This document shows positions 1 to 24,894 of a DNA stretch of 32,000 bases, in pieces. Source of the DNA: an uncultured Sangeribacter sp. (GTDB lineage Bacteria; Bacteroidota; Bacteroidia; Bacteroidales; Muribaculaceae). Location of the stretch: positions 59,357 through 91,356 of the forward strand of contig CAYZPH010000002.1 in NCBI GenBank assembly GCA_964480495.1, read 5' to 3'. Made by a program: the position numbers and the translations under genes. Under the pieces are notes generated by a model. The model was given only the letters and a program-made list of their open reading frames with translations, was not told where the DNA came from and ran no database searches. How positions within the stretch are numbered: position 1 is the first letter of the stretch; each line of letters begins with the position of its first letter.

Positions 1-125
1 ATTTTCTGCATTAGATTCGAGATAAACTTATCCATCTCGCTTTCTTTGGGCGCAGCAAAAGCAGTGCCGCATACAGAAACGGCTGCACAAATCGTCAAAA
101 ACGTATTTTTATCAAAAATTTTCAT
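1..125 (-). CDS. 5' end of a secreted protein, possibly a second GH3 beta-glucosidase (partial, continues past window start)
   Basis: The reverse complement of 1-125 reads MKIFDKNTFLTICAAVSVCGTAFAAPKESEMDKFISNLMQK with no stop. The N-terminus is signal-peptide-like. Its ATG (125-123) overlaps the TGA (124-122) of the upstream GH3 gene. 'FISNLMQK' resembles the '..LSxMTLxEK' start of mature GH3 enzymes (the neighbour has VEDALSRMTLQEK). The family call is weak because only 41 codons are visible. Confidence 0.6.
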   Translation of the reverse strand, partial: MKIFDKNTFLTICAAVSVCGTAFAAPKESEMDKFISNLMQK

Positions 126-2362: not shown

Positions 2363-2371
2363 ATCGTATCA

Positions 2372-3490: not shown

Positions 3491-3491
3491 A

Positions 3492-3544
3492 AGAAAAAAA
3501 TACTAAGGAGCCGGGATTGCGCCAAGAGGCGTAATCTCGGCTCC
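3492..3544 (-). terminator. Intra-operon GC-rich hairpin plus U-run (attenuator/partial terminator) between the SGBP and GH16 genes
   Basis: The minus-strand RNA reads ggagccgagattacgcc-tctt-ggcgcaatcccggctcc, a 17-nt stem with 2 A.C mismatches. It is followed by ttagtatttttttctt, which runs straight into the GH16 ATG at 3490. Confidence 0.4.
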
Positions 3545-3559
3545 GAACCTACCTGAAAA

Positions 3560-4960
3560 TTAATCGTGATGTACCTGAAGTATTATGTTGCTTACTTTTA
3601 TTTCAGTATTGTCGGGGCAAGTGCCGAAGTCAAAGACCAAAGACACTGCCTGCATTGCTTGACCCTCGCTTGGAGTGAGTTTGGCACGCCAGAACTTGTT
3701 AGGGCCTGCAAGGAGAGGAGTTTCATCAGCACAGAAATAATTGTTGTCATGCTTGTTGTCTTCCCCTTCATCGGTCTGAACGAGCTTAACCATAACAGCC
3801 GGGACATCTACGTTCGACTCAATAGTGCAAGTGAAGTCATACTGCACTGTTGGGTCATCGATACGTATGTCTGTATTGAGTGCGCACTGAGCCTGCCAGC
3901 GCTCCGGAGCAGCTACTGGAAGAGTGAAAGTATATGTGCCTGCACCATCGTCAGAGAATGCTGGATCAGCAATCTGATTCCATCCTGGAGCATACCAGAA
4001 CGACGGAGTATAGGTCATGCCATAGAAAAGGTTGTCAGCACTGTCATAAGCCACCCAGTTTGGTTCCGGATCTGTTGGAATTTCCGGGAGCACTGTACCA
4101 TCATCATCTTTGTGGTTTTTAAGCACAATATTCTCGATTGTTATAGTCACTCCTGCCGGATTACCACCGAAGTCGAAAGTATAAACGAGATTGTTCATGT
4201 CTACTACTGCTTCAAGATCGGAGAAGAAGAAGGCAGCAGGTTCGTCGGCAGTAAGGTTAATTTTCTGATTGCAGAAGAATGAGTGAGAATCATCATCGTC
4301 ACCATCAGGGTGAATCTTCATCGTAATATTTTTCATATCTTTATTTGCGGTGAAGATCACGGATCCATCGTAGTGCTCACCTGCGGGGAGCGAGATATCT
4401 GTGCCTACATGCATCTGCGCCTGCCACTGATCAGTAGTCGCCTCCGAGAGGGTGACTGAGATCACGTCGGTAGAGAAGTTGTGTGTAGGATCAGCAATCT
4501 GATTCCATCCTGGAGCATACCAGAAGCTATTGATCTGATGATTAGACTTTGGCCAGAGATTATATTCGCTCTCGTAGACATAACCGGCGAAGCCATTCAT
4601 TCTGGTTTTATCTATTGTAAAGGTCTTGGTAATAGTGCCATTTGAAACGCCATTGCCGTTGCCAACCTTAACTTCGACGGTATATTCTCCAGCCTTACGA
4701 TAATAGCGAGAGAATGCCATGTTGGTAGAATACGGCTTACCATCGATGTACCATACCGGATAAGTTCCCTTGCCGTTGAATTCGAAGTAAGCGGTGTTTG
4801 TTTCTTGATCAACATTGATGCTGACCGCATCCACATACGCAGAAGCCTCAGGGACATCGTTGATATTAACCTCGTAGTAATCCTTTTCTGAGCAGGAAGA
4901 AATCAGCAAAGGCGAAACCGCCAAAACTGCTGCGAGGAATGAAGATATACTGGTTTTCAT
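3560..4960 (-). CDS. SusE/F-positioned surface glycan-binding lipoprotein (SGBP) with Ig/PKD-like N-domain and two tandem repeated beta-sandwich domains
   Basis: 466-aa ORF with lipobox LISSC, located immediately downstream of susD. It contains two internal repeats, each carrying SFWYAPGWNQIADP...(E/D)(R/Q)WQAQ...GTDI/NTDI. I recognise no catalytic motif. Confidence 0.8.
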   Translation of the reverse strand: MKTSISSFLAAVLAVSPLLISSCSEKDYYEVNINDVPEASAYVDAVSINVDQETNTAYFEFNGKGTYPVWYIDGKPYSTNMAFSRYYRKAGEYTVEVKVGNGNGVSNGTITKTFTIDKTRMNGFAGYVYESEYNLWPKSNHQINSFWYAPGWNQIADPTHNFSTDVISVTLSEATTDQWQAQMHVGTDISLPAGEHYDGSVIFTANKDMKNITMKIHPDGDDDDSHSFFCNQKINLTADEPAAFFFSDLEAVVDMNNLVYTFDFGGNPAGVTITIENIVLKNHKDDDGTVLPEIPTDPEPNWVAYDSADNLFYGMTYTPSFWYAPGWNQIADPAFSDDGAGTYTFTLPVAAPERWQAQCALNTDIRIDDPTVQYDFTCTIESNVDVPAVMVKLVQTDEGEDNKHDNNYFCADETPLLAGPNKFWRAKLTPSEGQAMQAVSLVFDFGTCPDNTEIKVSNIILQVHHD

Positions 4961-4972
4961 GATTCTAAGATA

Positions 4973-6490
4973 TTAATACGGATTTTGATTAAGTGTTTTT
5001 CCTGCGCGATCGATTTCGCTCTGAGGAATCGGGAGATATTTCTTGTTTGGAGTCCACGAGTTAGTGCGATAGCCGTATTCGTCAGGAGTTAGAACAGAAG
5101 CAGCCTTGCCAGTACGGATAAGGTCCCAGTAGCGTTTTCCTTCGCCAACGAACTCGAGATGACGCTCTTCGATGATATTGTCGATGGTCGGTTCGAGTTC
5201 TGTTTCAAGTCCTGCACGACGACGCACCTGATTGAGATAGTTGCGAGCGTCGGCAGTATTACCACCAGTCAGCACGATAAGTTCGGCAGCATTGAGAAGA
5301 GCCTCCGAATAGCGATAAACACGCCAGTTGTTATTGTAGTTAAGTTCTCCTGAAGCCACTTGTCCGGCATTTCCATCTGCACGTGCAGAGTATTTTTGAA
5401 GGAAGAAACCGAAATCCTGATAGCGCTTGTTGTAAGTGCCGTCAAACGAGCGAACATCCCAGCAAGTTGCATCACGTCGCACATCATTTGCAGAATAACG
5501 GTTATAGGTTTCGAGTCGCAGCGGACAGAATCCCCAACCAGTATTGTGTCCGTCTTGCCCGGCAGGCCAGTTATTAGGGCTAATGAGTGTTGGAAGCACA
5601 GAGCCACCAGCTAAGAGTGGGGCACCCCAATCTCTTGCAGCATTTTCCGAAATATAGTTGATCTCATAGATTGACTCTTGGCTCCATTCGCCAGATTCCT
5701 CAAAGATAGATGCGTAGTCTCTAACAAGATCATAGTCGGGAGAAGCGATAATCTCTCTCATGTATTCGAGAGCCTTTGCATATCTATCCTTATCGTTCTG
5801 ATACATCACAACCTCTGCATAGAGCATATAAGCCATGGCTTGAGTGATTCGTCCATATGTGGCAGCGTTGCCTTTCCAGGGAAGCACATCAAGAGCAATA
5901 GCTTCCTCAAGATCGCTGACTATATGTGAATACACTTGGTCAGCAGTCATCTGATCAGTGATGTATGGGTCGGTGAGATTTTCGGTAAAGTAAGGCACAT
6001 TACCATAGAATTTCCAGAGCCAGTTTGCATAGTATGCACGTAGCACGTATGTCTGAGCCTTCCAAGACTTGATATCACTTTCAGATGCTCCGATTATATC
6101 CTTGGAAAGATAGCTGAATACGTCGTTGCATCTTTTCACACCGCTGAAGCCGTCGATCCAAATGCTTGTAAGCACCTTCATTGGGGTAGCCTCATAGTTA
6201 GCTATAAGATGCCAAACCTGGTTATCGTTTTTGTCGGCACCACCAACCCAAAAATCGTCTGCCATAATGTCAGCCATAAGGGTGTATGGCTCATAGTTTC
6301 CCATGCTCCAATCTGTCCAGTGCATAGGGTCGTAAGCAGCCACAACCGCTTCTTCTACGTGGTCTTTTGTAGAGAAATATTCCGACGCGTCTTCCTGAGT
6401 CGGGGAAGTCACCGTAAGGAAATCGTCACCGCATGATGTAAGCGCAACAGCAAATGCGGCAATTCCCAACGCTTTATATATAGTTTTCAT
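4973..6490 (-). CDS. susD: SusD/RagB-family outer-membrane glycan-binding lipoprotein
   Basis: 505-aa ORF with lipobox LTSCGDDFL, located directly downstream of the SusC-like gene. Size and helical TPR-like composition fit the family, and the C-terminus is family-like (KYLPIPQSEIDR...NPY). Confidence 0.93.
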   Translation of the reverse strand: MKTIYKALGIAAFAVALTSCGDDFLTVTSPTQEDASEYFSTKDHVEEAVVAAYDPMHWTDWSMGNYEPYTLMADIMADDFWVGGADKNDNQVWHLIANYEATPMKVLTSIWIDGFSGVKRCNDVFSYLSKDIIGASESDIKSWKAQTYVLRAYYANWLWKFYGNVPYFTENLTDPYITDQMTADQVYSHIVSDLEEAIALDVLPWKGNAATYGRITQAMAYMLYAEVVMYQNDKDRYAKALEYMREIIASPDYDLVRDYASIFEESGEWSQESIYEINYISENAARDWGAPLLAGGSVLPTLISPNNWPAGQDGHNTGWGFCPLRLETYNRYSANDVRRDATCWDVRSFDGTYNKRYQDFGFFLQKYSARADGNAGQVASGELNYNNNWRVYRYSEALLNAAELIVLTGGNTADARNYLNQVRRRAGLETELEPTIDNIIEERHLEFVGEGKRYWDLIRTGKAASVLTPDEYGYRTNSWTPNKKYLPIPQSEIDRAGKTLNQNPY

Positions 6491-6523
6491 ATCAGTCGAG
6501 ATATAATGTTAGATTAGTATTAT

Positions 6524-9500
6524 TTAAAACTCGATATTGAATCCCACAGTCCAAGTACGAGCCTGAGGATAAACTCCGAAGTCAACACCATTAGAGCTAT
6601 TTGAACCTGAGGAGATTTCAGGATCATAGCCATGATACTTAGTCCAAGTGGCGAGATTCTCAACAGCCACATAAGCGCGGAACTTCTGCACACCGATTTT
6701 CTTAGTGATATCGGAGGGGATAGTATAGCCGAGCTGCATATTCTTCAGTCTGCAATAGCTACCGTCATACACATAGAGGTCGGAGCTCTGCCAGTTGTAA
6801 CCATCGCCAATCACGAAACGCGGCACACGGTTGGAAGTGCCTTCGCCAGTCCAACGATCAAGCATCCATGAAGGAAGGTTTACCGAACGAGCATCGACAC
6901 GTCTGGTAGCATCGAAGATGTCGTTGCCGGCTACGCCTTGGAAGAATATATTGAAGTCAAAACCTTTCCATGCGAGATTAAGGGTTGCTCCATATGTCCA
7001 GTCTGGAGTACCGTTACCGATGTTGGTACGGTCGTCTTCAGTGATTGCTCCATTGCCATCGGTATCGACAAAGCGAACATCGCCCGGCACGAGAGAAGTA
7101 CCATATTTGGAATTGTATTCATTGGCCTCTGCCATGTTCTGAATAATGCCATTAGTCTTATAGCCATAGAAGTATGGGAACGGCTGGCCGTTTTCTGCTC
7201 TCAGGATAGTGCCTACACCCTGGAAGCTATCGAGGTTAGCCCAGCCCTCTTCGTTTCCGTATTTCACAAGTTTATTCTTGAGATACGAAAGGTTTGCGCT
7301 GATACCTACAGTGAGTTGATTGAAGAATTCATGACGGTAGCCGAGATCGAACTCAAGACCCCAGTTCTGCATATTGCCTACGTTGCCAACGGGGATTGCC
7401 TCACCAACATATTGCGGGAGAGACATTGTCATAAGCATGCCATTAGTTTTCTTGAAGAAGTAGTCTGCAGAGAAAGTCAGGCTATTGCTGAGGAAACCAA
7501 AGTCAAGACCGACGTCGTAAGATTCCGATTCCTCCCATTTGAGGTCAGGATTTGCGAGCTGCGATGGTTTTGTACCGATAGCAATTGAACCCGGGTTGCC
7601 AAAGATAGCATTGTTGTTGGAACTTGTGAGCGCCACATACTGGAAATTACCGATGTTCTCATTACCATTTTTACCCCACGAAGCACGCAGTTTCATGTTG
7701 TTTAGCCAGTTGCTCGAAGACTCCATGAATTGCTCGTTCATGATATTCCAGCCGGCAGATACAGAGGGGAATGTAGCCCAGTGGTTGTTTGCACCGAATC
7801 TGCTTGAACCATCACGACGTATAGTAGCTTGAATCATGTAGCGAGAATCGAAGTCGTAGCTTACACGTGCGAAATAAGATGCGAGTTTTGATTTCACCTG
7901 AGGTGCGCCCCATACGGTCATATCACCGTCTGCGGCAAGACCTGTACTTGCGTCAATATATGGACGGTCGTAGTTTGTGATATTATTGCGAGTTCCACCA
8001 AGGTACTGACCACCGCTCTCTTTAGCAGACTGACCGAGGAGGACGCTGAAAGTATGGAGATCAATAGTCTTGTCGTAAGAGAGGATATTCTCAATCTGCC
8101 ATACAAGACCACGCTCGCTTGTGGAGATGGCTGTAGAATGGTCTGTTGAAGCACCATCGCGCAGATAGTAGATAGGAGTATAGCCGTCGTATCCCCAGAA
8201 AGAAAGGTCTGCGCCATAGCTAATGCGATAGTGAAGATTATCCCAAATCTGAAGATCGCCGGTAAAGTTTCCTACAAACTTGTGACTCCAATTATTATTG
8301 CCAGGAAGCATAAGATTTGCAATCGGGTTACTCATCTCCTGGAAGTTACCAAATGCTGTCGGCACCATTACGAGTCGACCGTCGTTGCCATACATAGGCA
8401 CGTAGTCTGACTGGTTTGCAAGATAAGCCAACTGGGAAGCTTCCTCAGCGCTACCCTTTTCGAGATAAGGAGTGAGAATAGGCGACATTGCAAGAGCAGA
8501 GCCAAGAGGAGAGCCCCATGTAGAGTTAGTCTCAATGCCATGGCTTTTGATGCGAGTATATGCGAGATTTGTCTGCACTGTAGCTTTATTGAGCCAAGAG
8601 CGTTTTTTCGACTCATCGAAAAGCGTGATACCAAGATTTGAACGTAGAGTTAGACGATTGTAGTCTGAACGGTTGAAATTGCCACCTACAATACCATCTT
8701 GGTCATAATATCCAAGCGACAGCATGTATTTCACTGCCTCAGAACCACCGCTAACAGAAACTTGATGGTTCATCACTGGAGCGTTATTGTTGAAGACCTC
8801 TTCTTGCCAGTCTGTGCCTTCACCGTAAGAAGCAGGGTCAGCGTAAAGAGGAGCGACACCCGAATTGAGCGATCCCTCATTCATCATCATAGCATACTCA
8901 GTAGCGTTCAACACGTTGCGCTTCTTAGCAACACTCTGCCATCCGTAGCTGAATCCGTAAGTCACTTTTGCGCGACCGAGTTGTCCCTGCTTAGTTGTGA
9001 CAAGCACAACGCCATTGGCAGCACGAGCACCATAGACAGCGCCGGAAGCAGCGTCTTTAAGCACCTCAATAGATGCGATGTCGGCAGGATTAAGATAGTC
9101 GAGTCCACCTTCAATCGGCATGCCGTCTACGATATAGAGAGGATCCGAATTATTGATGGTTCCGACACCACGTATGCGCACCCTAGCGGCAGCACCGGGC
9201 TGACCGGAAGAAGAAGTAACGGTGACACCCGAAGCGAGACCCTTGAGAGCATTGTCGACTCTGACGGGAGCAGTCATCTCGAGGTCATCAGAATTAATGC
9301 TTGAAATAGCTGCAGTAACGACGCTTTTCTTCTGCGTGCCATATCCGATTACTACGAGGTCTTCAAGCATATCGGAGCTTTCAGTAAGCACAATCCGCAT
9401 AACCGGTTCGGCCTTTGCTTCCTTATCGCCGTAGCCCACCGCGCTGAAACGCAGGGTAGCGTTGTCAGGAACAGTAATCTTGAAATTACCATCGATATCG

Positions 9501-9667
9501 GTGGCAGTTCCTTTAAGAGTTGTTTTTTCGAGTACAGAGGCACCGATTATAGGCTCTCCAGCCGAGTCGGTGACAGTGCCTTTGACATCGATGTCTGCAT
9601 AGGCGACTCCCATGCCTGCAATCGCTGCCATAAAAGCAGACAGATACCTTGCTTTAAACTTTTTCAT
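6524..9667 (-). CDS. susC: SusC-like TonB-dependent outer-membrane transporter
   Basis: The tracked ORF begins at a TTG (9691). I place the start at the ATG at 9667 (MKKFKARYLSAF..., signal peptide). The protein has a carboxypeptidase-regulatory-like N-domain (DIDVKGTVTDSAGEPIIGASV), plug motifs (DLVVIGYGTQKK, DPLYIVDGMP) and a C-terminal beta-strand ending in an aromatic residue (TVGFNIEF). There is no STN signalling domain. Confidence 0.93.
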   Translation of the reverse strand: MKKFKARYLSAFMAAIAGMGVAYADIDVKGTVTDSAGEPIIGASVLEKTTLKGTATDIDGNFKITVPDNATLRFSAVGYGDKEAKAEPVMRIVLTESSDMLEDLVVIGYGTQKKSVVTAAISSINSDDLEMTAPVRVDNALKGLASGVTVTSSSGQPGAAARVRIRGVGTINNSDPLYIVDGMPIEGGLDYLNPADIASIEVLKDAASGAVYGARAANGVVLVTTKQGQLGRAKVTYGFSYGWQSVAKKRNVLNATEYAMMMNEGSLNSGVAPLYADPASYGEGTDWQEEVFNNNAPVMNHQVSVSGGSEAVKYMLSLGYYDQDGIVGGNFNRSDYNRLTLRSNLGITLFDESKKRSWLNKATVQTNLAYTRIKSHGIETNSTWGSPLGSALAMSPILTPYLEKGSAEEASQLAYLANQSDYVPMYGNDGRLVMVPTAFGNFQEMSNPIANLMLPGNNNWSHKFVGNFTGDLQIWDNLHYRISYGADLSFWGYDGYTPIYYLRDGASTDHSTAISTSERGLVWQIENILSYDKTIDLHTFSVLLGQSAKESGGQYLGGTRNNITNYDRPYIDASTGLAADGDMTVWGAPQVKSKLASYFARVSYDFDSRYMIQATIRRDGSSRFGANNHWATFPSVSAGWNIMNEQFMESSSNWLNNMKLRASWGKNGNENIGNFQYVALTSSNNNAIFGNPGSIAIGTKPSQLANPDLKWEESESYDVGLDFGFLSNSLTFSADYFFKKTNGMLMTMSLPQYVGEAIPVGNVGNMQNWGLEFDLGYRHEFFNQLTVGISANLSYLKNKLVKYGNEEGWANLDSFQGVGTILRAENGQPFPYFYGYKTNGIIQNMAEANEYNSKYGTSLVPGDVRFVDTDGNGAITEDDRTNIGNGTPDWTYGATLNLAWKGFDFNIFFQGVAGNDIFDATRRVDARSVNLPSWMLDRWTGEGTSNRVPRFVIGDGYNWQSSDLYVYDGSYCRLKNMQLGYTIPSDITKKIGVQKFRAYVAVENLATWTKYHGYDPEISSGSNSSNGVDFGVYPQARTWTVGFNIEF

Positions 9668-9718
9668 GAGATATAATTTTAGGTTTAGCAAATGTTAAAT
9701 ATTCTCAGATTTTTTTTG

Positions 9719-9726
9719 CAAAGATA
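9719..9726 (-). promoter_or_regulatory. Candidate Bacteroidetes -7 promoter box upstream of susC
   Basis: Plus-strand caaagata equals minus-strand TAtcTTTG, which matches the TAnnTTTG consensus. It lies 52 nt upstream of the susC ATG. No convincing -33 TTTG is seen at the expected spacing. Confidence 0.3.
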
Positions 9727-9774
9727 GTGTTTCTTTTCACTTTTTATGAATTATGTAAGTTCATTGGTAAGTAT

Positions 9775-9810
9775 ATATAAAAATTATTGCCCTGACAATC
9801 AGGGCAATAA
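9775..9810 (-). terminator. Rho-independent terminator after the regulator gene
   Basis: Perfect 12-bp stem ttattgccctga / tcagggcaataa (9784-9795 and 9799-9810) with a 3-nt loop. On the minus strand it is followed by tttttatatat. It lies 52 bp downstream of the regulator stop codon. Confidence 0.7.
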
Positions 9811-9861
9811 AGAAAAGTTTCTTTAATTTTCGGTAAATCTCGAAACTTGACTTCCGAGCGT

Positions 9862-11655
9862 TTAGTTCTCTATTCTTCCGAGTTTTCTAACGGTTTCGGC
9901 AAACTGTTCACGGCTCACGGCAGCCTTGTTTCGTGTTCGTTGGCGAGTATTGTATACAGTCTGCACTGAGCAGTGGAGAAACTTCGCAATCTTTACGCTA
10001 TCGTTGAGACCAAGTCTCACGAGAGCATAGATACGCAGTTCGGTGTTAAGAGTTTTAGGATTTCGCAACTTTATTCGCTCCTCGGGGCGCAACAAGGTGT
10101 TGAAATCCTCCACAAAACCGGGATAAATATTTAGGAAAATCTCATCAAAAGTCTCGTATAACTCCTTAATTTCGTCGTATGAAAGTTCCGGAGACTTCAC
10201 TATATCTAGCACCTTGTCAAATTTTTTGTCGACGAGCAATCTGTGGATATTGCTACGGAAATCATCCATCTTGTTGATGTAGTTGCTACAGATAGCAAAC
10301 ATGTCGGCTATATGTCTTTCCTTTTCTTCGTTGACATCTGCAAGTTCCTTTGCATTGCATTTCGCAGTCTGATACATTTCCTGAAGCTTTTCATTTGTTT
10401 CATTGAGCTGAGCTCTGATTGCAGAAAGCGCCTTCACCTTGTCGTTGAGTTCGGCATTTGCTTCGTTGAGAGTGGCTCTGGACTGCTTTAAAAGCTTGTT
10501 CTGTCGCATAATGTAGAATATCGATGCATTGATCACCGCGATAATTACGATCAAAAGCACCATATAGATATGATTTATGCGAATCTGCCTCTCACTTCTC
10601 TCCTGAATACTCTGAAGTATATCCTTCTGCAAGCGTGCCAGATTGCCAGTTCTTACCCTGCTTTTGTAGTCGTTAGCGCATGCTATGCAATAGTTTACAT
10701 ATTGATTCGCATGATCCAAATCACCGATATCGTAGAGAATTTTGGAGGCTTCTTCAAGCGATGCGATTTCTTTGTTACAAGCACGAATATCTGCCATGGC
10801 CGAGGAAAGGAGATATTTCAGATAGTTTTGCTTGTCGCCAATCTGCTCGTATAGCTTTGCGAGCACCCATGCCATCATGGCAAAATCACGAGTAGCATTG
10901 TCGGAAGAATCAACAGTTTTCCTAAGAATAGGAATTGCAGAAGCCGCCTTCTTCTTGTCATTCAAGCTGCTCCAGCCCGTAAGCCAGTAATAATTTGAGT
11001 CTCCCTCTCTGAGGTCTTTTGTCATCTCATGTAGAATACTGTCTGCCATCTGAGAATACATTCCCATTTCGTATTCCACTCCTATATAAAGGTCCGTGTG
11101 TGTTGACAGAAACAGCATTCGATCGCAATATTTAAGAGCGAGCTCAGGGGAAAGCTGTGCTGAGTCGATTGAACCAAGCACCTCCGCAGCCTTTTCGAGG
11201 AAACCAGTAGCAGAAAGCAGGTAGACACGGTTGAGATTCATTTCATCCTCTAAATCCGTCCGACCTAGTTGCTTTGCAGTGGCAAGAGCCTCATCAGCAT
11301 ATTTCATCGCAAAATCAGAGTCGTATGCACTATACTCTTCGTAGAGCGATGACTGCAGCCAGTAACGCTGTTCAAGATTTCCTGTAGCGTCCAGTTTGCG
11401 ATGAAAACTCTCAATGCGGCTTTCCTTTTCTTTTATGAACTCAGAAGATTTCAGCAGCAATGAGTCTAAATCGGTAAGTATCGTCTTTATTTCAGGCGTC
11501 AGGCGCGCCGGAATATCCTCATTCTGAGCCGTAGCAGTAGTAACCACAGCTACAACAGCACAGAACACACAACAGGCCCTAATAGCCGCACACTGCGCAA
11601 TAAACGACAAACGCACCGCCACACCACATATTTTGTCTGAAATCGTTGAATTCAT
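9862..11655 (-). CDS. Membrane-spanning one-component regulator: periplasmic TPR-like sensor, one internal TM helix, coiled coil, C-terminal HTH (DUF6377-like architecture)
   Basis: 597-aa ORF. A hydrophobic N-terminus (aa ~17-42) is followed by ~320 aa of helical TPR-like repeats. A TM helix spans aa ~361-383 (NHIYMVLLIVIIAVINASIFYIM), followed by a heptad-rich segment. The C-terminal HTH reads ELRIYALVRLGLNDSVKIAKFLHCSVQTVYNTRQRTRNK. The gene lies directly upstream of susC. Confidence 0.7.
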   Translation of the reverse strand: MNSTISDKICGVAVRLSFIAQCAAIRACCVFCAVVAVVTTATAQNEDIPARLTPEIKTILTDLDSLLLKSSEFIKEKESRIESFHRKLDATGNLEQRYWLQSSLYEEYSAYDSDFAMKYADEALATAKQLGRTDLEDEMNLNRVYLLSATGFLEKAAEVLGSIDSAQLSPELALKYCDRMLFLSTHTDLYIGVEYEMGMYSQMADSILHEMTKDLREGDSNYYWLTGWSSLNDKKKAASAIPILRKTVDSSDNATRDFAMMAWVLAKLYEQIGDKQNYLKYLLSSAMADIRACNKEIASLEEASKILYDIGDLDHANQYVNYCIACANDYKSRVRTGNLARLQKDILQSIQERSERQIRINHIYMVLLIVIIAVINASIFYIMRQNKLLKQSRATLNEANAELNDKVKALSAIRAQLNETNEKLQEMYQTAKCNAKELADVNEEKERHIADMFAICSNYINKMDDFRSNIHRLLVDKKFDKVLDIVKSPELSYDEIKELYETFDEIFLNIYPGFVEDFNTLLRPEERIKLRNPKTLNTELRIYALVRLGLNDSVKIAKFLHCSVQTVYNTRQRTRNKAAVSREQFAETVRKLGRIEN

Positions 11656-11678
11656 CTAACAGAAAAATCTATATCAAA

Positions 11679-14810
<3,132 letters not shown>

Positions 14811-18286: not shown

Positions 18287-18336
18287 GCCCTCTAAAAGTT
18301 TTTTATCTAACTTTTAGAGGGCTCTTTATTTTAATA
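18287..18336 (+). repeat. Left copy of a perfect 50-bp direct repeat; doubles as a terminator hairpin after GH97
   Basis: The sequence gccctctaaaagttttttatctaacttttagagggctctttattttaata is identical to 23573-23622. It holds a perfect 14-bp stem (18287-18300 / 18309-18322), an 8-nt loop and a T-rich tail. It lies 62 bp after the GH97 stop. Confidence 0.9.
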
Positions 18337-18666
18337 CACCCTCACCCGGAGCCAATTCTCAGTAAGTACTATTGCGACAAGCAATAGATTATTCCCTACA
18401 GAAGGAGAATTCAAACGAAAAGCTTAGGGTCTATTACTATCATGGGCATCTTATCAGAACATGGGAGATGTTGACAAATCATTCGTGAGAGGGATTGATC
18501 TTTGTGATGACAAACAACATTCCGACTATTTTTACACATTACGCAAGAAATAATATTCTGAAGGGGAATTTAGAATTTTCAGATTTCTTGCCTTTGCAGC
18601 TTTTATGAAAAGATATTTGTTACTTTTTCGAAGGAAGTCATGCAGTAAAACGAGAAAACGTGTATC

Positions 18667-20256
18667 ATGATTCTTGTGAAAGAAACACTGAATATAGATG
18701 ATTCCACTATAGTGAAGGAATGCAAGCATGGCAATCGGGAGGCAATGAGTCTTCTGTACACTCGTTATGCCCCAAGAATGTTGCGACTTATTTCCTTCTA
18801 CGTAAAGAATTCAGATGATGCGAAAGACATTCTCCACGATGGATTCATTGCGGCATTCACACGTATCGACACACTTCAAGACCCGGCAAAGGTCGATCAT
18901 TGGCTTGCAACTATCATAAAAAACCTCTCGCTAAAATTTCTTCAAGAACAAAGTGTGGTTTCATTACTCAATGAAATTCCTGAAGAGCCAAGCGATGACT
19001 GCGAAATAGACAATATAATTGATTTCGAAACCCTTGAGACTCTTATATGCCGTCTTCCTGATGGTTACCAGAAAGTATTCCGGTTGGCAGTTTTAGAAAA
19101 CAAGACGCACAAGGAGATTGCACAAATTCTTGGAATTGCGCCCAACTCCTCATCCTCACAGCTGTTTCATGCAAAAGTGCATTTGCGTAGGCTAATAATG
19201 GAATATAAGAAAACGGCAGGCACTCTCATATTACTTCTCATAGCAGTTGCAACAGAAACATATATTTCTTTTAACAACTCTGATTATGATGGCACAATGT
19301 CATCTAAGCCTAAATCTTTAGGAACTGCTGCATATCCGGTGGCACAACATACCAAAACATCTAGAATCGTAAGACATTCTCCCAACTGTCCAGCAACTAC
19401 TATTTCTGTTAACACATTCAAAAAGCAAGAATCGCTCATATCTATGTCTAGAAGTGAGCGTATAACTGCGGACACCATACCATCCTTGCCAGCAAAAACA
19501 GCAAAATACGATATAGATTCATCTTCAACCTATAATAACGACACGACATCTGAAGCCGAGTCTTCTCCAAAAGAGATTTTTGAATATCACTACAAAAAGC
19601 TGGATTATGAAAATGATATATCTGCAGACAATTCCTGTAAAAAAAATAAAGAAAAGGGATGGAGTGCCGGAGTGTCTTTTGACCCCGGAATAATAAATTT
19701 TGATAAATCTCTAAACGACGGAGAGTTAGCTGACAACGAACACATACACGATTACCTTAAATTTCAGAATCATAAAAATATGCTACCAATAACGGTAGGT
19801 ATTAAGATTGAGAAACGTATTACTTCTTGGCTTGGCATAGAGTCTGGACTTACTTATACATACCTTCAGTCTGATTTCGAATATCGCAAAAACCAAGCCC
19901 GATGTCAATGGCACTATATTGGGATTCCTCTGAAAGCGAATCTCTATGCATATTTATCATCAAAAATACATCTATACGTCTCTATGGGAGGCGATTTTGA
20001 AATTCCAGCATATTCAATCACAAAACCTATTAAGACAGAAAACGTTTTAGGTTATTCTTACGGAAAATTTAAATCTCCGGTTGTTTGGTCGCTTAGTGGA
20101 AGCGTTGGTATTTCCGTGCCCCTTTCACAGAAGATAGATATATATATTGAGCCTACTCTCAAGTATAATTTCCCTCACGACTATAGAGTGCCAAATGCTT
20201 GGAGCGAACACCCTTTGAATATTTCAATTCCTATAGGAGTACGTTTCAAATGGTAA
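18667..20256 (+). CDS. ECF-type sigma-70 factor fused to a TM helix, Ser/Thr-rich linker and C-terminal outer-membrane-type beta-barrel domain
   Basis: 529-aa ORF with four parts:
- aa 1-180 form an ECF sigma factor, with region 2 (DAKDILHDGFIAAF...VDHWLATIIKN) and region 4 (LPDGYQKVFRLAVLENKTHKEIAQILGIAPNSSSSQLFHAKVHLRRL).
- aa ~183-201 are a hydrophobic helix (TAGTLILLLIAVATETYIS).
- aa ~202-330 are a low-complexity S/T/K/D-rich stretch.
- aa ~331-529 show the alternating amphipathic strands of the OMP_b-brl_2/porin-like family (WSAGVSF, LGIESGLTYTYL, WHYIGIPLKANLYAY, LYVSMGGDFEIP, IYIEPTLKYNF) and end in an aromatic residue (RFKW). Confidence 0.8.
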   Translation: MILVKETLNIDDSTIVKECKHGNREAMSLLYTRYAPRMLRLISFYVKNSDDAKDILHDGFIAAFTRIDTLQDPAKVDHWLATIIKNLSLKFLQEQSVVSLLNEIPEEPSDDCEIDNIIDFETLETLICRLPDGYQKVFRLAVLENKTHKEIAQILGIAPNSSSSQLFHAKVHLRRLIMEYKKTAGTLILLLIAVATETYISFNNSDYDGTMSSKPKSLGTAAYPVAQHTKTSRIVRHSPNCPATTISVNTFKKQESLISMSRSERITADTIPSLPAKTAKYDIDSSSTYNNDTTSEAESSPKEIFEYHYKKLDYENDISADNSCKKNKEKGWSAGVSFDPGIINFDKSLNDGELADNEHIHDYLKFQNHKNMLPITVGIKIEKRITSWLGIESGLTYTYLQSDFEYRKNQARCQWHYIGIPLKANLYAYLSSKIHLYVSMGGDFEIPAYSITKPIKTENVLGYSYGKFKSPVVWSLSGSVGISVPLSQKIDIYIEPTLKYNFPHDYRVPNAWSEHPLNISIPIGVRFKW

Positions 20257-20341: not shown

Positions 20342-21469
20342 ATGAAAATTACAAAACTATGGATTTTAGCTTCATTAACGTTGTTGTGTCTTACAACGGC
20401 ATGCAATGAAGAACTTTCGGTTTACACCGACAGAAATCCGTTTAATGATCGCATCACAGAACTTATATTCGGAATGCACAGCAAGTTGCACGAGTGTAGC
20501 CGAGGTTCGCTAATTAGAATAACACGTTTGACGACTAGCTCTTACAATGTATCAGACACACTAACGACAAGGACAGATAGTCCTAAAAGCAATGACACTT
20601 ATGAAATTCACACAGTGGAAATAGACTTCGGAAATACATCAGGCTACGCAATACTTTCTGATACGCCAGGTATAGATCAAATATTCTACTATACAGAGGA
20701 TGGATGCATCGAGGATACTACATTAATACCCCCCTTGCGAGATTTGGTCAAAGCCATACCCGAAATGGCAAACGAAATATTAACAAATACAACAGAAATT
20801 AATACTAGATCTAGCGATAATGATATAAATATCATGCCACTTGTAAAGTATGAATGGGGACAAGGAGAACCTTTTAATAACTATGCCACTTATTGCACTT
20901 GTGAAGAGTGTAGGAAAATCGGGAATCACATGCCTATCGGGTGCGTAACAGTAGCTCTTGGTCAATTTATAGCGACCATGAAAAAATTCAATGGTACATT
21001 CTATGGCAACCGTAACATCGATTTTGAATCATTGCCTACTTGCCAGCGGGATTTTTCAGCAGAACAATCACTGGCAGTCGCTCACTTTTTACAAGAAATA
21101 GCATTGAACTGCCAAACGAAGTTCCGATGCGGCGCAAGTTCCTCAACATCATATGCAGCCACAAACTATCTTCGGGATCTAGGATATTCTGTAGATCAAG
21201 TGGAAGGGAGTATTAATAAACAGCGGTTTATCAACAATCTAAAAGTGGGAAATCCTCATATAGCATACGGTGTAAGTTCTGAAAACAGAGGACATATGTG
21301 GATTGTTGATGGATTTACAGAACAGAACAATGTTTCCCAATACCATATAAATTGGGGATGGGGATCCAGCAATGGGTGGTCTTCCTGCTACAATTACATG
21401 ACTATCAAAGATCCAGAAAAGACTTATAATTATTATAAAAACCAAGGGCACCTTTATTTTGGTGGATAA
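20342..21469 (+). CDS. Lipoprotein cysteine protease, peptidase family C10 (streptopain/SpeB, Bacteroides Bfp-like) with propeptide
   Basis: 375-aa ORF with lipobox LTTAC. It carries a propeptide-like block (GYAILSDTPGIDQIFYYTEDG) and the catalytic Cys context YEWGQGEPFNNY...PIGCVTVALGQF (Cys201). The catalytic His context is RGHMWIVDGF...YHINWGWGSSNGW (His318), closely matching the SpeB GHAFVIDG...YHVNWGWGG. Confidence 0.87.
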   Translation: MKITKLWILASLTLLCLTTACNEELSVYTDRNPFNDRITELIFGMHSKLHECSRGSLIRITRLTTSSYNVSDTLTTRTDSPKSNDTYEIHTVEIDFGNTSGYAILSDTPGIDQIFYYTEDGCIEDTTLIPPLRDLVKAIPEMANEILTNTTEINTRSSDNDINIMPLVKYEWGQGEPFNNYATYCTCEECRKIGNHMPIGCVTVALGQFIATMKKFNGTFYGNRNIDFESLPTCQRDFSAEQSLAVAHFLQEIALNCQTKFRCGASSSTSYAATNYLRDLGYSVDQVEGSINKQRFINNLKVGNPHIAYGVSSENRGHMWIVDGFTEQNNVSQYHINWGWGSSNGWSSCYNYMTIKDPEKTYNYYKNQGHLYFGG

Positions 21470-21518: not shown

Positions 21519-22751
21519 ATGAATAACAAAATAAGCAACACCTTGCATTTTATCTTACAGAGTGTAGTCATGTCAATAGCTCTGATAACAGTTGGATGTA
21601 GCGATATTGGAGATGCGAATGAATTTATATTGGAGACCAAAGCTCTGAGATTTACGGATGACCCAGATTTTGATGCAGAAGACCTCTACACTCCAGAATT
21701 CATATATGTAGATTCTTCAGAACAGATAATAACCTTACATTGCAAACCAGCATATAATGACATTCCGGCAATCCAGAAATTTTACTTTGCATTTCCAGAA
21801 CTTGATGAAAGTGAGGGGTTCTATCGCTGGATATACTATGGCATAGATGAATTCACTGACTCAAGCAATATGAAAAACGAATATTGTCACGTATGGAATG
21901 AAATTGAAGAAGGAGAACCTGTCATAAAAATAAAACTTAATGCAAACGATTCGGATACAGAAAGAAAAATGCATATTAATATTTCTGCCGGAATTATTTA
22001 TCAAACCGCACATGTTTTTGGACTTATTACCATCGTTCAATCACCAAGTAAAGACAAAACAAATAGTTTTGTTCTAAAAGCCAAATACAAAGGCCACATA
22101 TATACAACGGATACAGATATAGATACCAATGGATGTATCGTATACCATAATAATGAATATAGACAGATTATGGAGACAATAGACTTGAGTCCGTATATTC
22201 ATGAAGTAATAATGGACAATGACCTAATATATTATTATGACGATGAGGATATAGCGACCAATAAACCATTACAGGACTTGATGAACTCTGACGAATCTAG
22301 AAGTGAAACGAAAGAGGACAATACGAGATCCACTAGTTTCGAAGGAATCAGTTCTAATGACAAGGGATATGTGGCTCTTCACGACAATGACAATTTCGGA
22401 GGGAAATATATATCAAAAGGACTTACTAATTATCATTTCACGTGGAATCTACCAAATCTTAAAGATTATGGAATGAATGATAACGTCACTTCAATAGCAG
22501 TGGCATATAATGGAGAGGACCCTAATATATGCTCAGTATTGACCATCTGGGATGACTCTGACTACAATTTTGGAGACAACAGTAGAAAAAAGCACCGAAT
22601 AAGTATAATAGCATCAAAATACAATCAGTACACATCTGTAGCGGATTTAAAAAAAATCAAGAAAATAGGATCCTCTAAGTCATGGAATGACTGCATTTCA
22701 TCTATTTCGTTTCACTTTGGCTATACTGATAGATTATTACTTGATTATTAG
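21519..22751 (+). CDS. Lipoprotein of unknown function: BACON-like N-domain, middle region, beta/gamma-crystallin-like C-domain
   Basis: 410-aa ORF with lipobox ITVGCSD. aa ~36-175 are paralogous to the next gene and end in a BACON-type pattern (KIKLNANDSDTERKMHINISAG...GLITIVQS). aa ~283-402 contain two Greek-key-like motifs: VALHDNDNFGGKYIS...YGMNDNVTSIAV and LTIWDDSDYNFG...SWNDCISSISF. Confidence 0.65.
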   Translation: MNNKISNTLHFILQSVVMSIALITVGCSDIGDANEFILETKALRFTDDPDFDAEDLYTPEFIYVDSSEQIITLHCKPAYNDIPAIQKFYFAFPELDESEGFYRWIYYGIDEFTDSSNMKNEYCHVWNEIEEGEPVIKIKLNANDSDTERKMHINISAGIIYQTAHVFGLITIVQSPSKDKTNSFVLKAKYKGHIYTTDTDIDTNGCIVYHNNEYRQIMETIDLSPYIHEVIMDNDLIYYYDDEDIATNKPLQDLMNSDESRSETKEDNTRSTSFEGISSNDKGYVALHDNDNFGGKYISKGLTNYHFTWNLPNLKDYGMNDNVTSIAVAYNGEDPNICSVLTIWDDSDYNFGDNSRKKHRISIIASKYNQYTSVADLKKIKKIGSSKSWNDCISSISFHFGYTDRLLLDY

Positions 22752-22790: not shown

Positions 22791-23297
22791 ATGAATCTGA
22801 CAAAAAATAAGTTATCTAACATTAGAGTAGCAATAGTTTGTGTCTTCATCCTTTCTTTCCTCGGAGGATGCTCTGATAACGATGATCTAATGATTGGATT
22901 TTTTCAAGACATCCGATTTTTAGATACCACACAGGAATGGTCTTCTTATACAGAGACAATTGAGATCGACTCAAAAGCTCAGACACTTGATTTTACTATT
23001 AAATTGATCGAACCAGATATATTTCGGCCTGAAGACATTACTTTTTACTACGCTACCCAATGGGATGAATTTTTTGAACGTTGGACAAACTTAACTGCCG
23101 TAATACAGACACCGACGACCAAAGATTTCTGTACGATCAGGAAATTCTGGCACAATGGGAACTTGACTATTCAAGTTTCGCTCCAAGCCAACAATACCGG
23201 AGAAAATAGAAAGATGCATATTCATGCTTATGGTGGTTTTTATTCAGGACACGAACGAATCGGCAATTTGGATATAACCCAAACCTTCAACGAATGA
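22791..23297 (+). CDS. Small lipoprotein with single BACON-like domain (paralog of the N-domain of the preceding gene)
   Basis: 168-aa ORF with lipobox FLGGCSD. QVSLQANNTGENRKMHIHAYGG...GNLDITQT aligns with KIKLNANDSDTERKMHINISAG...GLITIVQS of the upstream protein. Confidence 0.6.
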   Translation: MNLTKNKLSNIRVAIVCVFILSFLGGCSDNDDLMIGFFQDIRFLDTTQEWSSYTETIEIDSKAQTLDFTIKLIEPDIFRPEDITFYYATQWDEFFERWTNLTAVIQTPTTKDFCTIRKFWHNGNLTIQVSLQANNTGENRKMHIHAYGGFYSGHERIGNLDITQTFNE

Positions 23298-23334
23298 GAT
23301 CAACTATGTCTGCCTTTACGCCATTGGTCTGATT

Positions 23335-23560
23335 ACGTCGTAGCCTCTTAAACATACTTGTACTAAAACGTACGGTGGTCTTGTTGTGAAGAATTACTTA
23401 CACACCGAAGCACACTACCTGATACTGCTATGAATTTTAATTTCTAGCCCCTGTGACTTGTTTTTGCTTGACCGAAGGTAATTTCTCTCCAGTAGTGCTT
23501 CTGAAGGCACTCCTAAAGGATTCTTACTTTGTATGTTTTTTACTAGAAGAGGCTACGCGT
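23335..23560. repeat. ~226-bp non-coding segment bounded by imperfect terminal inverted repeats (MITE-like, tentative)
   Basis: acgtcgtagcctctt (23335-23349) pairs with aagaggctacgcgt (23547-23560). The 11-bp core cgtagcctctt / aagaggctacg is perfect. I found no ORF or recognisable protein fragment between the arms. Confidence 0.25.
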
Positions 23561-23572
23561 ATTTTGAAGTGT

Positions 23573-23622
23573 GCCCTCTAAAAGTTTTTTATCTAACTTT
23601 TAGAGGGCTCTTTATTTTAATA
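23573..23622 (+). repeat. Right copy of the perfect 50-bp direct repeat / hairpin
   Basis: Identical over 50 nt to 18287-18336. The flanking bases differ on both sides (c vs t upstream, c vs t downstream). Confidence 0.9.
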
Positions 23623-23677
23623 TCAATACCCACAAACAATCAATGCATTACAAAATCCGCACTTTTTCCGCACTTGA

Positions 23678-24262
23678 AAAATTGCCAAGAAAAAACATTT
23701 TGTATTAACTTTGCGAGAAAACAAAATTGCATTCGACATTAAGAATCTTCCAATCGTTTACTCAAGCAAGATAACTGTTCTTCTGTTTACAATGCCCGAA
23801 GAACTAAATGTTGGAAACAAGACAGAATCCTCGCTCGCGAGTATACTTGAAGGAACAACTATGCAGTAACAGGTTCTTGAACTATGTAACAAATGTGACA
23901 AATTAAAAGCGTCATCATATCGGGGAAAGTTCGGGAATAAGAAAAAAATAGCCTTGCAAACCATTGATAAATATCTCGTTAAAAAAACCGAACTATTTCC
24001 GAACTCTAAAAATCTCTTGACAAGGCAAATTTCGCACCCATGGGATTAGGGGAATCCCACACAATTGCTCCACAAAACATCGATAAGGATTGACTAGAAA
24101 GGGGCTGGACTCGCAGCTGTTACAGGAGGCATGGACATACAACAGCCTAACAAGTCAGATTATCCCAAAGTAAAAGTAGATTTCGACCGTCCATTTCTCT
24201 ATATCGTCGGAAACAACAAAACCGGAGCTATCCTGATGTCTTGCACAGTGATAGGATTCTGA
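23678..24262 (+). pseudogene. Serpin (protease inhibitor I4) C-terminal half, inactivated: 5'-truncated with three in-frame stops
   Basis: A single frame (codon starts at 23678 + 3n) reads ...FDIKNLPIVYSSKITVLLFTMPEE...MQ*(TAA 23867)...YRGKFGNKKKIALQTIDKYL...HPWD*(TAG 24047)GNPTQLLHKTSIRID*(TAG 24095)KGAGLAAVTGG...KVKVDFDRPFLYIVGNNKTGAILMSCTVIGF*(TGA 24260). The hinge/reactive-centre-loop pattern (HK..I.VdE.G.eAAAvTg) and the C-terminal serpin signature (DRPFLF.I.....ilF.G.v) are clear. No N-terminal half is present. Confidence 0.75.
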
Positions 24263-24290
24263 AAAATATTCAAAACAATAGCTTTTTAAT

Positions 24291-24330
24291 TGAACTGCGT
24301 CCCACAAGTTTGAACTGCACCCCAAAAGTT
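24291..24330 (+). repeat. Tandem imperfect 20-bp direct repeat
   Basis: tgaactgcgtcccacaagtt (24291-24310) and tgaactgcaccccaaaagtt (24311-24330) match at 17 of 20 positions. The second unit forms the left arm of the following hairpin. Confidence 0.8.
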
Positions 24331-24365
24331 AGACACAAAACTGTTGGGGTGCAGTTTTATTTATT
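24313..24365 (+). terminator. Rho-independent terminator downstream of the serpin remnant
   Basis: 18-nt arms aactgcaccccaaaagtt (24313-24330) and aactgttggggtgcagtt (24339-24356) pair with one mismatch. The loop is 8 nt (agacacaa) and the tail reads ttttatttatt. Confidence 0.75.
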
Positions 24366-24530
24366 CCCGACACTAATACTCGGTAAGTACTATAGCGCCT
24401 GGATAGACGAGCATGATCTGGTAGTCCATATCACAAGTGATTATGGTATAAACATTACCGATAAGCAAGGGGAACCGATTGTCTGCGGCACATGGCATCA
24501 ATCATGTGAAGGGAGTAGAATGATATAGTA

Positions 24531-24785
24531 ATGTCGTGTTCTTTCAATGAAAGAGATACTGAAATAGATACGTATTTAGACGAAGACCCTATGAATTCAG
24601 AGATGCACCCGTCTTTTAAGATTCATTCCATCGTCGGACTATCTGGCAATCTAGTGCCATTCGATGAGAAGTTGCAAAGCACACTGCAATACCAAGAACC
24701 GTATTTATACAATAAACTACTACCTTTTCAACCAAATCATCTGAACCCTCCTACGATATACACATTCAAAACTTCCGATAATTAA
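24531..24785 (+). CDS. Hypothetical 84-aa protein (doubtful)
   Basis: ATG-initiated ORF in otherwise non-coding DNA. It has no signal peptide, no recognisable motif and no evident promoter. It may be a gene remnant. Confidence 0.2.
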   Translation: MSCSFNERDTEIDTYLDEDPMNSEMHPSFKIHSIVGLSGNLVPFDEKLQSTLQYQEPYLYNKLLPFQPNHLNPPTIYTFKTSDN

Positions 24786-24863
24786 CATTCTTAGTTGACT
24801 TAACTATCAATAGTCGGGCTACTCTGTGGCTGATTTGATTTTTGGTTTTTTAAACATAAGAAT

Positions 24864-24894
24864 TTTGCAGTTTCGGCAAAATATGCTATTTTTG
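24864..24894 (+). promoter_or_regulatory. Candidate promoter of the TPR/beta-barrel operon (-33 TTTG / -7 TAnnTTTG)
   Basis: tttg at 24864-24867 and tatttttg at 24887-24894 with a 19-nt spacer. The -7 box ends 17 nt before the ATG at 24912. Confidence 0.5.

Follow-up and report, generated by a model that had tools for sequence, protein, structure and literature searches.

A Dma3-type ECF sigma factor fused to an outer-membrane-type beta-barrel in Muribaculaceae, and its relatives in other Bacteroidales

The dual membrane-spanning (Dma) proteins, defined as a family by Pardue et al. (PNAS 2024, PMC10927553), include a form with a sigma factor fused at its N terminus, Dma3 of Bacteroides thetaiotaomicron (BT_2778, WP_011108473.1). 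We describe here a gene of this kind from an uncultured Sangeribacter sp. (Muribaculaceae), located at positions 18667-20256 of a 32-kb stretch of contig CAYZPH010000002.1 (this whole stretch is referred to below as the window, and features lie on its forward strand unless stated otherwise), in which an extracytoplasmic function (ECF) sigma factor, a transmembrane (TM) helix, a disordered linker and an outer-membrane-type beta-barrel make up a single chain. Fractionation and mass spectrometry of the founding member of the family, Dma1, located the full-length protein in total membranes and only C-terminal fragments in vesicles; the region of its residues 1-40 is an anti-sigma segment and pulls down Das1 (PMC10927553). 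Dma3 occurs mostly in Bacteroides and Prevotella (PMC10927553). A follow-up study (J Bacteriol 2026, PMC13088901) found the dma3 locus, bt_2778-2779, induced in dma1 and dma2 mutants, in which Das1 and Das2 are unleashed, and still describes the role of Dma3 as unknown.

Other described systems resemble the window protein in part. IutY of Pseudomonas putida (ECF243) is likewise one chain with an N-terminal ECF sigma factor, a TM segment and an extracytoplasmic part, being a sigma/anti-sigma hybrid freed by regulated proteolysis through Prc and RseP (reviewed in PMC8999054), but it keeps an anti-sigma domain of FecR type as well as a periplasmic domain, takes its signal from a separate TonB-dependent receptor and has no barrel of its own. 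In the actinobacterial groups ECF48, ECF52 and ECF53 (e.g. SCO4117), the ECF sigma factor is likewise extended by TM helices and by a long extracytoplasmic part, with the differences that a zinc-finger anti-sigma domain stands ahead of the TM helices, that the envelope is Gram-positive and that there is no beta-barrel. The FecA-FecR-FecI system is alike in its logic, an outer-membrane barrel being linked via the periplasm to the control of an ECF sigma factor, but it takes three proteins and TonB energy transduction, where the window gene encodes a single chain predicted to run through all compartments. An ECF group with a fused barrel is not mentioned in the main text of Casas-Pastor et al. 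(2021).

A search seeded with the homologue from Bacteroides sp. GD17 returned a 90%-identity cluster of 2029 sequences, which led to a B. thetaiotaomicron fusion of 549 aa (P0278). Residues 10-529 of the window protein align with residues 1-549 of this fusion at 30% identity (E 8e-76), from the sigma domain through to the barrel. The gene after P0278 encodes an S-adenosylmethionine (SAM) methyltransferase, matching the annotation of BT_2778/BT_2779 in the supplements of PMC13088901, and, as argued from the species, the annotation and this neighbour gene, P0278 is very likely Dma3/BT_2778. The fused architecture is thus already published, and the window protein is a divergent, Muribaculaceae-type member of Dma3; an earlier reading of this stretch from its letters alone (the original prediction) had implied that the fusion was new, which does not stand. 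As is the case for Dma3, the window protein has a four-part architecture, a direct junction between region 4 of the sigma factor and the TM helix, a promoter motif before its gene and a terminal ...RF-x-W. The two differ in that Dma3 belongs to a separate subclade, the window protein being in the Muribaculaceae one, and in the genes that accompany them, a C10 protease cassette in the window and the SAM methyltransferase BT_2779 at Dma3.

We consider it fairly probable that the product of the window gene is an ECF sigma factor of the Dma3 type that spans both membranes, tethers itself, is freed by proteolysis, regulates its own gene and drives the downstream cassette. The window reveals no new principle, as the Dma family, with Dma3 as its fused form, is in the literature; its value is comparative, the fused form being abundant and diversified in Muribaculaceae, which are major gut bacteria of mice and humans. 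What is added here is the lack of an anti-sigma segment, the grouping of the fused proteins in a single clade, a family-specific promoter and cargo genes swapped between lineages. One chain reaching from the cell exterior to RNA polymerase would be among the most direct signalling designs in double-membraned bacteria, and the fused design raises the question of how one protein is inserted into both membranes. The recognisable promoter, marking both the fused gene itself and cargo genes, offers a handle (as a reporter or a predicted regulon) on the function of Dma3-type proteins, which the published deletions have not revealed.

Architecture and ancestry of the fused protein

The gene is an intact frame of 529 codons as annotated (18667-20256). 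Its start codon is probably the GTG at 18676, which gives 526 aa, rather than the ATG at 18667 (529 aa), because sister loci keep GTG-AAx 7-9 nt past the -10 block of the predicted promoter described below. The mRNA would then probably be nearly leaderless, the ATG at 18667 being probably a coincidental overlap with this -10 block. Sigma-70 region 2 (18754-18951, aa 30-95; Pfam PF04542 Sigma70_r2, 42.8 bits) and region 4 (19030-19185, aa 122-173; Pfam PF08281 Sigma70_r4_2, 45.9 bits) both match above the gathering score, and NCBIfam TIGR02937 scores 66.8 bits (cut-off 42.9). Only generic ECF sigma models match, NCBIfam holding no model specific to the fused protein, the split sigma factors described below or their Dma-like partners. 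The protein has the layout of ECF (group 4) sigma factors, with regions 2 and 4 only and conserved core- and DNA-binding residues, and the Foldseek and PDB sequence matches of this domain are SigW, sigmaE and AlgU, PDB profile matches reaching down to E 1e-13. In the AlphaFold2 model, built with the family alignment as input, the predicted local distance difference test score (pLDDT) is ~97 in region 2 and ~85 in region 4. Column identity in this alignment (120 members) is 0.7-0.9 in the sigma domain, and the core of region 4 is invariant in the family at I157, P159, S162-Q165, F167 and A169, all within GIAPNSSSSQLFHAK.

A single helix at 19216-19278 (aa ~184-204) is predicted from hydropathy and from the AlphaFold2 model to be an inner-membrane TM signal anchor of N-in/C-out orientation. 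The strongest 19-aa hydrophobic window begins at aa 184, the hydrophobic segment of the family alignment starting from ~181-184, and in the model an uninterrupted helix (aa 159-206) joins the last helix of region 4 to the membrane helix. Mean net charge, family-wide, is +2.5 in the 12 aa preceding the TM helix vs +0.6 in the 12 aa after it, a bias that fits an N-in topology under the positive-inside rule. Beyond the helix comes a putative periplasmic linker, predicted to be intrinsically disordered (19279-19659, aa ~205-331, ~125 aa, rich in S, P, K, E and T), with pLDDT below 50 over aa 208-327. It is the least conserved stretch of the alignment (column identity 0.16-0.27) and ranges from 86 to 215 aa across the family (median 108), none being shorter than 86.

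The C-terminal domain (19660-20253, aa 332-529), which ends in ...GVRFKW, is predicted to be an eight-stranded outer-membrane-type beta-barrel. Its pLDDT exceeds 90 in the full-length model; modelled alone, it yields eight strands with a mean pLDDT of 88 and a predicted TM-score (pTM) of 0.83, with turns of four residues on one side and longer loops on the opposite one. A Foldseek search against the PDB gave 43 matches at E <= 0.001, and all of those listed are outer-membrane or designed transmembrane beta-barrels, headed by the TM domain of OmpA (9fzc, E 3e-8; target-normalised TM-score 0.67-0.69) and with OmpW, OprG, OprF-N, OmpX, Ail and NspA as further neighbours. A PDB sequence search with the window protein returned sigma factors only, and no solved Dma-type barrel. 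Precomputed matches to PF13505 or PF13568 are present in many homologues, the score of OMP_b-brl_2 (PF13568) on the window protein being 16.5 vs 27 bits. The window protein ends in W, and 276 of the 296 members (93%) end in an aromatic residue, be it W, F or Y, with a hydrophobic residue at -3; a C-terminal aromatic together with a hydrophobic residue at -3 is the pattern of outer-membrane beta-signals. Read from the sequence, the features of helix, linker and C terminus agree with a chain that exits the cytoplasm a single time, traverses the periplasm and terminates in the outer membrane.

The division proposed in the original prediction, which saw sigma regions 2 and 4 continuing within a single unbroken open reading frame (ORF) into one TM helix (nt 19213-19269), a ~130-aa linker (19270-19656) and an outer-membrane-type barrel with an aromatic end (19657-20253), is borne out in each part, by Pfam matches above threshold and 529 open codons, by hydropathy and the modelled helix, by the low pLDDT and poor conservation of the linker and by the AlphaFold2 modelling that it had called for, which gave a confident eight-stranded barrel; its borders agree with ours within a few codons. 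Strand 4 of the barrel (aa 409-430) contains, past a short beta3-beta4 connection, a C-x-W-H-Y motif (aa 413-417, nt ~19903-19917), of which C413, W415, H416 and Y417 are invariant or nearly so across the fused family. Split Dma-like barrels retain just the H-Y-x-G-I-P-L-K portion of this region.

The identical 529-aa protein is found on contigs from three independently assembled sequencing runs, and its relatives are numerous. A first protein database search returned 695 of them and a second 1626, most of them full length. Among the best 120 of the first search, over 100 span 95-100% of the query, with identities of 36-84%, and the named ones are Muribaculaceae. A scan of one genome per species, in which taxonomic spread was judged on the best 80 loci, found full-length matches in Sangeribacter, Lepagella, Muribaculum, Prevotella, Segatella, Alloprevotella, Bacteroides sp. 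GD17 and Cryptobacteroides; fusions in Bacteroides, Parabacteroides and Phocaeicola were also found by the second protein search. Among the best 80 loci the full-length matches are from Bacteroidales, save two bins titled 'bacterium' and one contig labelled Roseburia (L047), and other Bacteroidota gave no more than sigma-only matches in the genome scan. The question raised in the original prediction, whether the fused form recurs, is thereby answered by hundreds of full-length homologues across the Bacteroidales.

Some individual loci deserve mention. L047, labelled as a metagenome-assembled genome (MAG) of Roseburia sp., a Firmicute, carries a full-length fused gene with both copies of the promoter motif described below, and is most likely a mis-binned Bacteroidales contig. 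At least one MAG contains two fused copies (L011, L012). In many contigs of Parabacteroides the gene call covers no more than the barrel, the final 240 aa, under the annotation 'outer membrane beta-barrel protein' (L091, L092, gene 3001-3723). A PDDEXK_2 transposase-like gene stands immediately before it, and an insertion appears to have truncated the fused gene there. In a Prevotella MAG (L042, 5992-7683), the fused gene is split into ORFs of 260 and 298 aa, a break that may reflect a frameshift or a sequencing error, or mark a pseudogene.

Related sigma factors and barrels are also encoded by separate genes. At split loci of Bacteroides, Phocaeicola, Mediterranea and some Prevotella, the gene of a ~180-aa sigma factor is followed at once by a separate gene of 415-464 aa. 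The split sigma factors share 35-41% identity with aa 1-183 of the query, and the C terminus of the partners aligns with the query barrel (blastp). When the fused family is compared by hhalign with 16 split Dma-like partners, the barrel matches at 99.9% probability (E 2.8e-37). The split pairs, confined like the fused form to Bacteroidota, have in common with the window protein a homologous barrel, a TM helix, a disordered linker, a related sigma factor and the -35 element TGCAGTATTT. They differ from it in that their sigma factor is separate and is held by an N-terminal anti-sigma segment of ~40-50 aa, whereas the window sigma is itself the tethered cytoplasmic domain. In the partners, a ~45-aa N-terminal motif, DKW..L+..M.DY.EP.PEGLW, stands ahead of a TM helix at residue ~50, and occupies the position of the Das1-binding segment of Dma1. 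This motif is found in none of the 296 fused proteins, in all of which the TM window begins 9-19 aa past the near-invariant SSSQLF of region 4, so that there is no room for an anti-sigma domain; nor does the window protein give any Pfam or NCBIfam match to a FecR-like or zinc-binding anti-sigma domain between region 4 and the TM helix.

The existence of separate sigma and Dma-like pairs in Bacteroides, Phocaeicola and Mediterranea speaks for the long ORF being an assembly or frameshift artefact that joins a sigma gene to an anti-sigma gene, but this explanation is next to impossible and was rejected, the same ORF being present in three independent assemblies and homologues at full length running to hundreds. 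The fused sigma domains, moreover, form a clade of their own, and the ~45-aa anti-sigma segment that the split partners carry is missing from the fused form, which argues against simple read-through; stop-codon read-through of a sigma/anti-sigma pair was rejected on this same absence. In a neighbour-joining tree of sigma domains, calculated without bootstrap, the fused proteins all fall in one clade, within which the Muribaculaceae branch, with the window protein, is sister to a Bacteroides/Parabacteroides/Prevotella branch that includes the B. thetaiotaomicron protein. The nearest non-fused sigma relatives adjoin Dma-like genes, the setting of ECF21, the Bacteroidota sigma group paired with Dma proteins; the fused domains form a clade separate from these relatives and have the -35 element in common with the split sigma genes. 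From its sequences, the fused form looks like a single old fusion that dropped the anti-sigma segment and not like a recent read-through.

Predicted promoter and cargo genes

A predicted ECF-type promoter, TGCAGT-N15-GTATCA, with a -35-like ATGCAGT and a -10-like GTATC, lies at 18641-18667, where it abuts the annotated ATG, and is the sole exact match of the motif in the window. The motif was found by enumerating 4-mer pairs upstream of fused genes (19 vs at most 7 in shuffled controls). In its refined form, [CG][AG]TGCAGT[AC]TTT...[CT]ATC[TA], with 15-17 nt from TGCAGT to the second block, it occurs no more than 200 nt upstream of the gene in 32 of 54 non-redundant fused loci, vs ~0.2 expected from background. 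A copy also lies 7-130 nt (mostly 13-28) past the stop codon, before the next gene, in 30 of these 54 loci. The B. thetaiotaomicron locus carries both copies, and differs in this from the window, which has only the upstream one. Other matches number 25 in 969 kb, both strands included, several of them adjoining truncated gene copies. The conserved motif is predicted to be the autoregulatory cognate promoter of the fused sigma factor.

Upstream of the split sigma genes (loci L059-L086), at ~60-100 nt, is found TGCAGTATTTTTG-N-CATTTA, the -35 block being common with the fused family and the -10 element differing (CATTTA in the split pairs vs [CT]ATCT in the fused family). Das1, Das2 and Dma3-type sigma factors may therefore engage in cross-talk at promoters, and a -35 block common to both would explain the rise of bt_2778/bt_2779 when Das1 or Das2 is freed.

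Three genes follow the fused gene on the same strand, separated from it and from one another by gaps of 85, 49 and 39 nt with no terminator predicted between them. They encode a peptidase of family C10 (streptopain family; 20342-21469; Pfam PF01640, 74.7 bits) and two proteins of 410 aa (21519-22751) and 168 aa (22791-23297), all three being probable lipoproteins with acidic residues right after the lipobox cysteine, a pattern of surface- or vesicle-exported Bacteroides lipoproteins. The 410-aa and 168-aa proteins are paralogous over a common N-terminal domain of ~170 aa (29% identity, E 3e-7), which has a weak BACON-like Pfam match. It is plausible, given this arrangement, that the fused gene heads a co-transcribed operon.

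An orthologous locus (L006), whose fused gene is 83% identical, has the same genes plus an intact serpin. The window retains a 3' remnant of the latter at 24010-24253, consisting of the last ~80 codons and matching aa 334-415 of the 416-residue L006 serpin (tblastn, 83% identity over 66 aa, E 5e-31). The remainder of 23300-24890 is without a long ORF, which suggests that the window strain has undergone a deletion or rearrangement.

Beyond these two loci, the cargo is different. The C10 gene follows the fused gene only in the window and in L006, while the genes downstream in the 54 non-redundant fused loci include radical-SAM/SPASM proteins (17), SAM methyltransferases (15, including B. thetaiotaomicron) and CotH (6), and lipoprotein serpins stand directly downstream in L009 and L018, two Muribaculaceae loci that were checked individually. 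Cargo genes are exchangeable between lineages, and C10 is lineage-specific. The loci with radical-SAM/SPASM cargo, the commonest kind, include L004, L011, L015-L017, L030, L034, L047, L050, L053-L056 and L058; the radical-SAM/SPASM gene often has before it that of a CarboxypepD_reg-like lipoprotein of ~148 aa, or after it that of a GFO/IDH/MocA oxidoreductase, a set that may be a peptide- or sugar-modification module controlled by the fused sigma factor.

Control of the tethered sigma factor

In the mechanism that we favour, the sigma domain (regions 2 and 4) would reside in the cytoplasm, the chain would enter the inner membrane as a single N-in helix ~10 residues past region 4, the disordered linker of ~125 residues would traverse the periplasm and the eight-stranded barrel would sit in the outer membrane, as homology with Dma1 suggests. 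The sigma factor would be kept off merely by region 4 being pinned to the membrane, without an anti-sigma domain: with the recognition helix of region 4 continuous with the TM helix, the beta-flap and the -35 DNA would have little space, from which we infer inactivity while tethered. A signal at the barrel or linker (outer-membrane damage or cleavage) would trigger site-1 and then site-2 (RseP-type) proteolysis. The freed sigma factor would transcribe its own promoter at 18641-18667, a positive autoregulation, and read-through from there, with the cassette co-transcribed, would extend to the C10 protease, the two lipoproteins and, ancestrally, the serpin. Sequential proteolysis with an RseP-type last cut has likewise been proposed for Dma1 (PMC10927553), and the release of IutY via Prc and RseP (PMC8999054) is a precedent for the proteolytic freeing of a membrane-fused sigma factor; by these analogies proteolytic release is plausible, and it is compatible with an outer-membrane position of the barrel, not an alternative to it.

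Several points weigh against this mechanism. Deletion of dma3 in B. thetaiotaomicron gave no detectable phenotype (PMC10927553). Dual-membrane localisation is known for Dma1 alone and for no fused (Dma3-type) protein, and the release step is without a known protease, cleavage site or signal. As to the barrel, the Pfam OMP_b-brl match (PF13505, aa 328-498) reaches 26.1 bits (E 1e-5) against a gathering score of 28.7, and it is from pTM and TM-scores only that closure and a lipid-facing belt are predicted. No second copy of the promoter is present between the sigma gene and the C10 gene in the window, the spacer being without TGCAGT, so that the proposed control of the C10 cassette is drawn from gene spacing and the lack of a predicted terminator. 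Lastly, a sigma factor tethered without an anti-sigma domain might work at the membrane, in which case release may be needless.

This last point leads to the main rival explanation, which we regard as unlikely: the sigma factor would be active while tethered, with no release, and the barrel and linker, as an anchor or by sensing envelope geometry mechanically, would modulate a membrane-bound holoenzyme. The absence of an anti-sigma domain and of a conserved cleavage motif in the linker (family alignment) speaks for it, as do the ToxR/CadC-type membrane-bound transcription factors, which bind DNA while tethered. However, the region 4 helix enters the membrane segment only 9-19 residues on, which would make contact with the beta-flap and the -35 element sterically hard, and the characterised fused sigma factor IutY requires regulated proteolysis. 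The original prediction had put first an inner-membrane-tethered sigma factor with a periplasmic beta sensor domain, and had offered as more speculative a barrel in the outer membrane with the linker across the periplasm; of these two readings it is the second that is better supported, by homology to Dma-type barrels and by the dual-membrane localisation of Dma1. The fused members have no localisation data and the OMP_b-brl score of the window protein lies just under threshold, both of which suit a periplasmic domain, but such a domain is improbable given that every listed Foldseek match (E <= 0.001) is an outer-membrane or designed TM barrel, that the terminal aromatic residue is kept across the family, that the linker measures at least 86 aa and that C-terminal fragments of the homologous Dma1 barrel occur in outer-membrane vesicles (PMC10927553).

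That the adjacent C10 protease cleaves and frees the sigma factor, as the original prediction had allowed, is suggested by the position of its gene 85 nt downstream on the same strand, but is highly improbable, since elsewhere among the fused loci its place is taken by radical-SAM/SPASM, methyltransferase, CotH or serpin genes; with cargo so variable, a family-wide release mechanism cannot depend on C10, and the claim has to be given up. The cargo may be viewed in another way, rather doubtful in our opinion, in which the fused family would be no anti-sigma factor but a one-protein trans-envelope transducer with the tether between the two membranes as its sole off-switch, and the Muribaculaceae subclade would sense foreign surface proteolysis. 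A severed chain or a destroyed barrel would fire the sigma factor, so that proteases of the host or of competitors, by cutting the linker or a loop that is exposed, would turn on protease and protease-inhibitor defences. What points this way is the cargo of the subclade, a secreted C10 protease, lipoprotein serpins (L009, L018) and, ancestrally, both in the window lineage.

Surroundings of the cassette

Upstream of the fused gene lie GH97, pyrH and frr, and a polysaccharide utilisation locus of typical make-up is found nearby, at 122-14783 on the reverse strand, with GH3, GH16 with a BACON domain, a SusD-like protein, a SusC-like TonB-dependent receptor, a regulator-like DUF6377 protein and a GH2 beta-galactosidase. 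This locus is unrelated to the fused sigma factor.

The four-gene cassette formed by the fused gene and the three genes after it is flanked by a perfect 50-nt direct repeat, a terminator-like GC-rich hairpin with a T tract. The left copy (18287-18336) comes after GH97 and the right copy (23573-23622) closes the cassette, the two being 5286 bp apart with similarity confined to the 50 nt. The left copy corresponds to the terminator of GH97, a related, diverged hairpin being present at the equivalent place in L006, and the right copy is strain-specific. The repeat was considered as a signature of the family or of an island and rejected as such, being present only in contigs of the window strain and having no similarity outside the 50 nt. 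A third, weak copy (60%) is found at 24317-24366.

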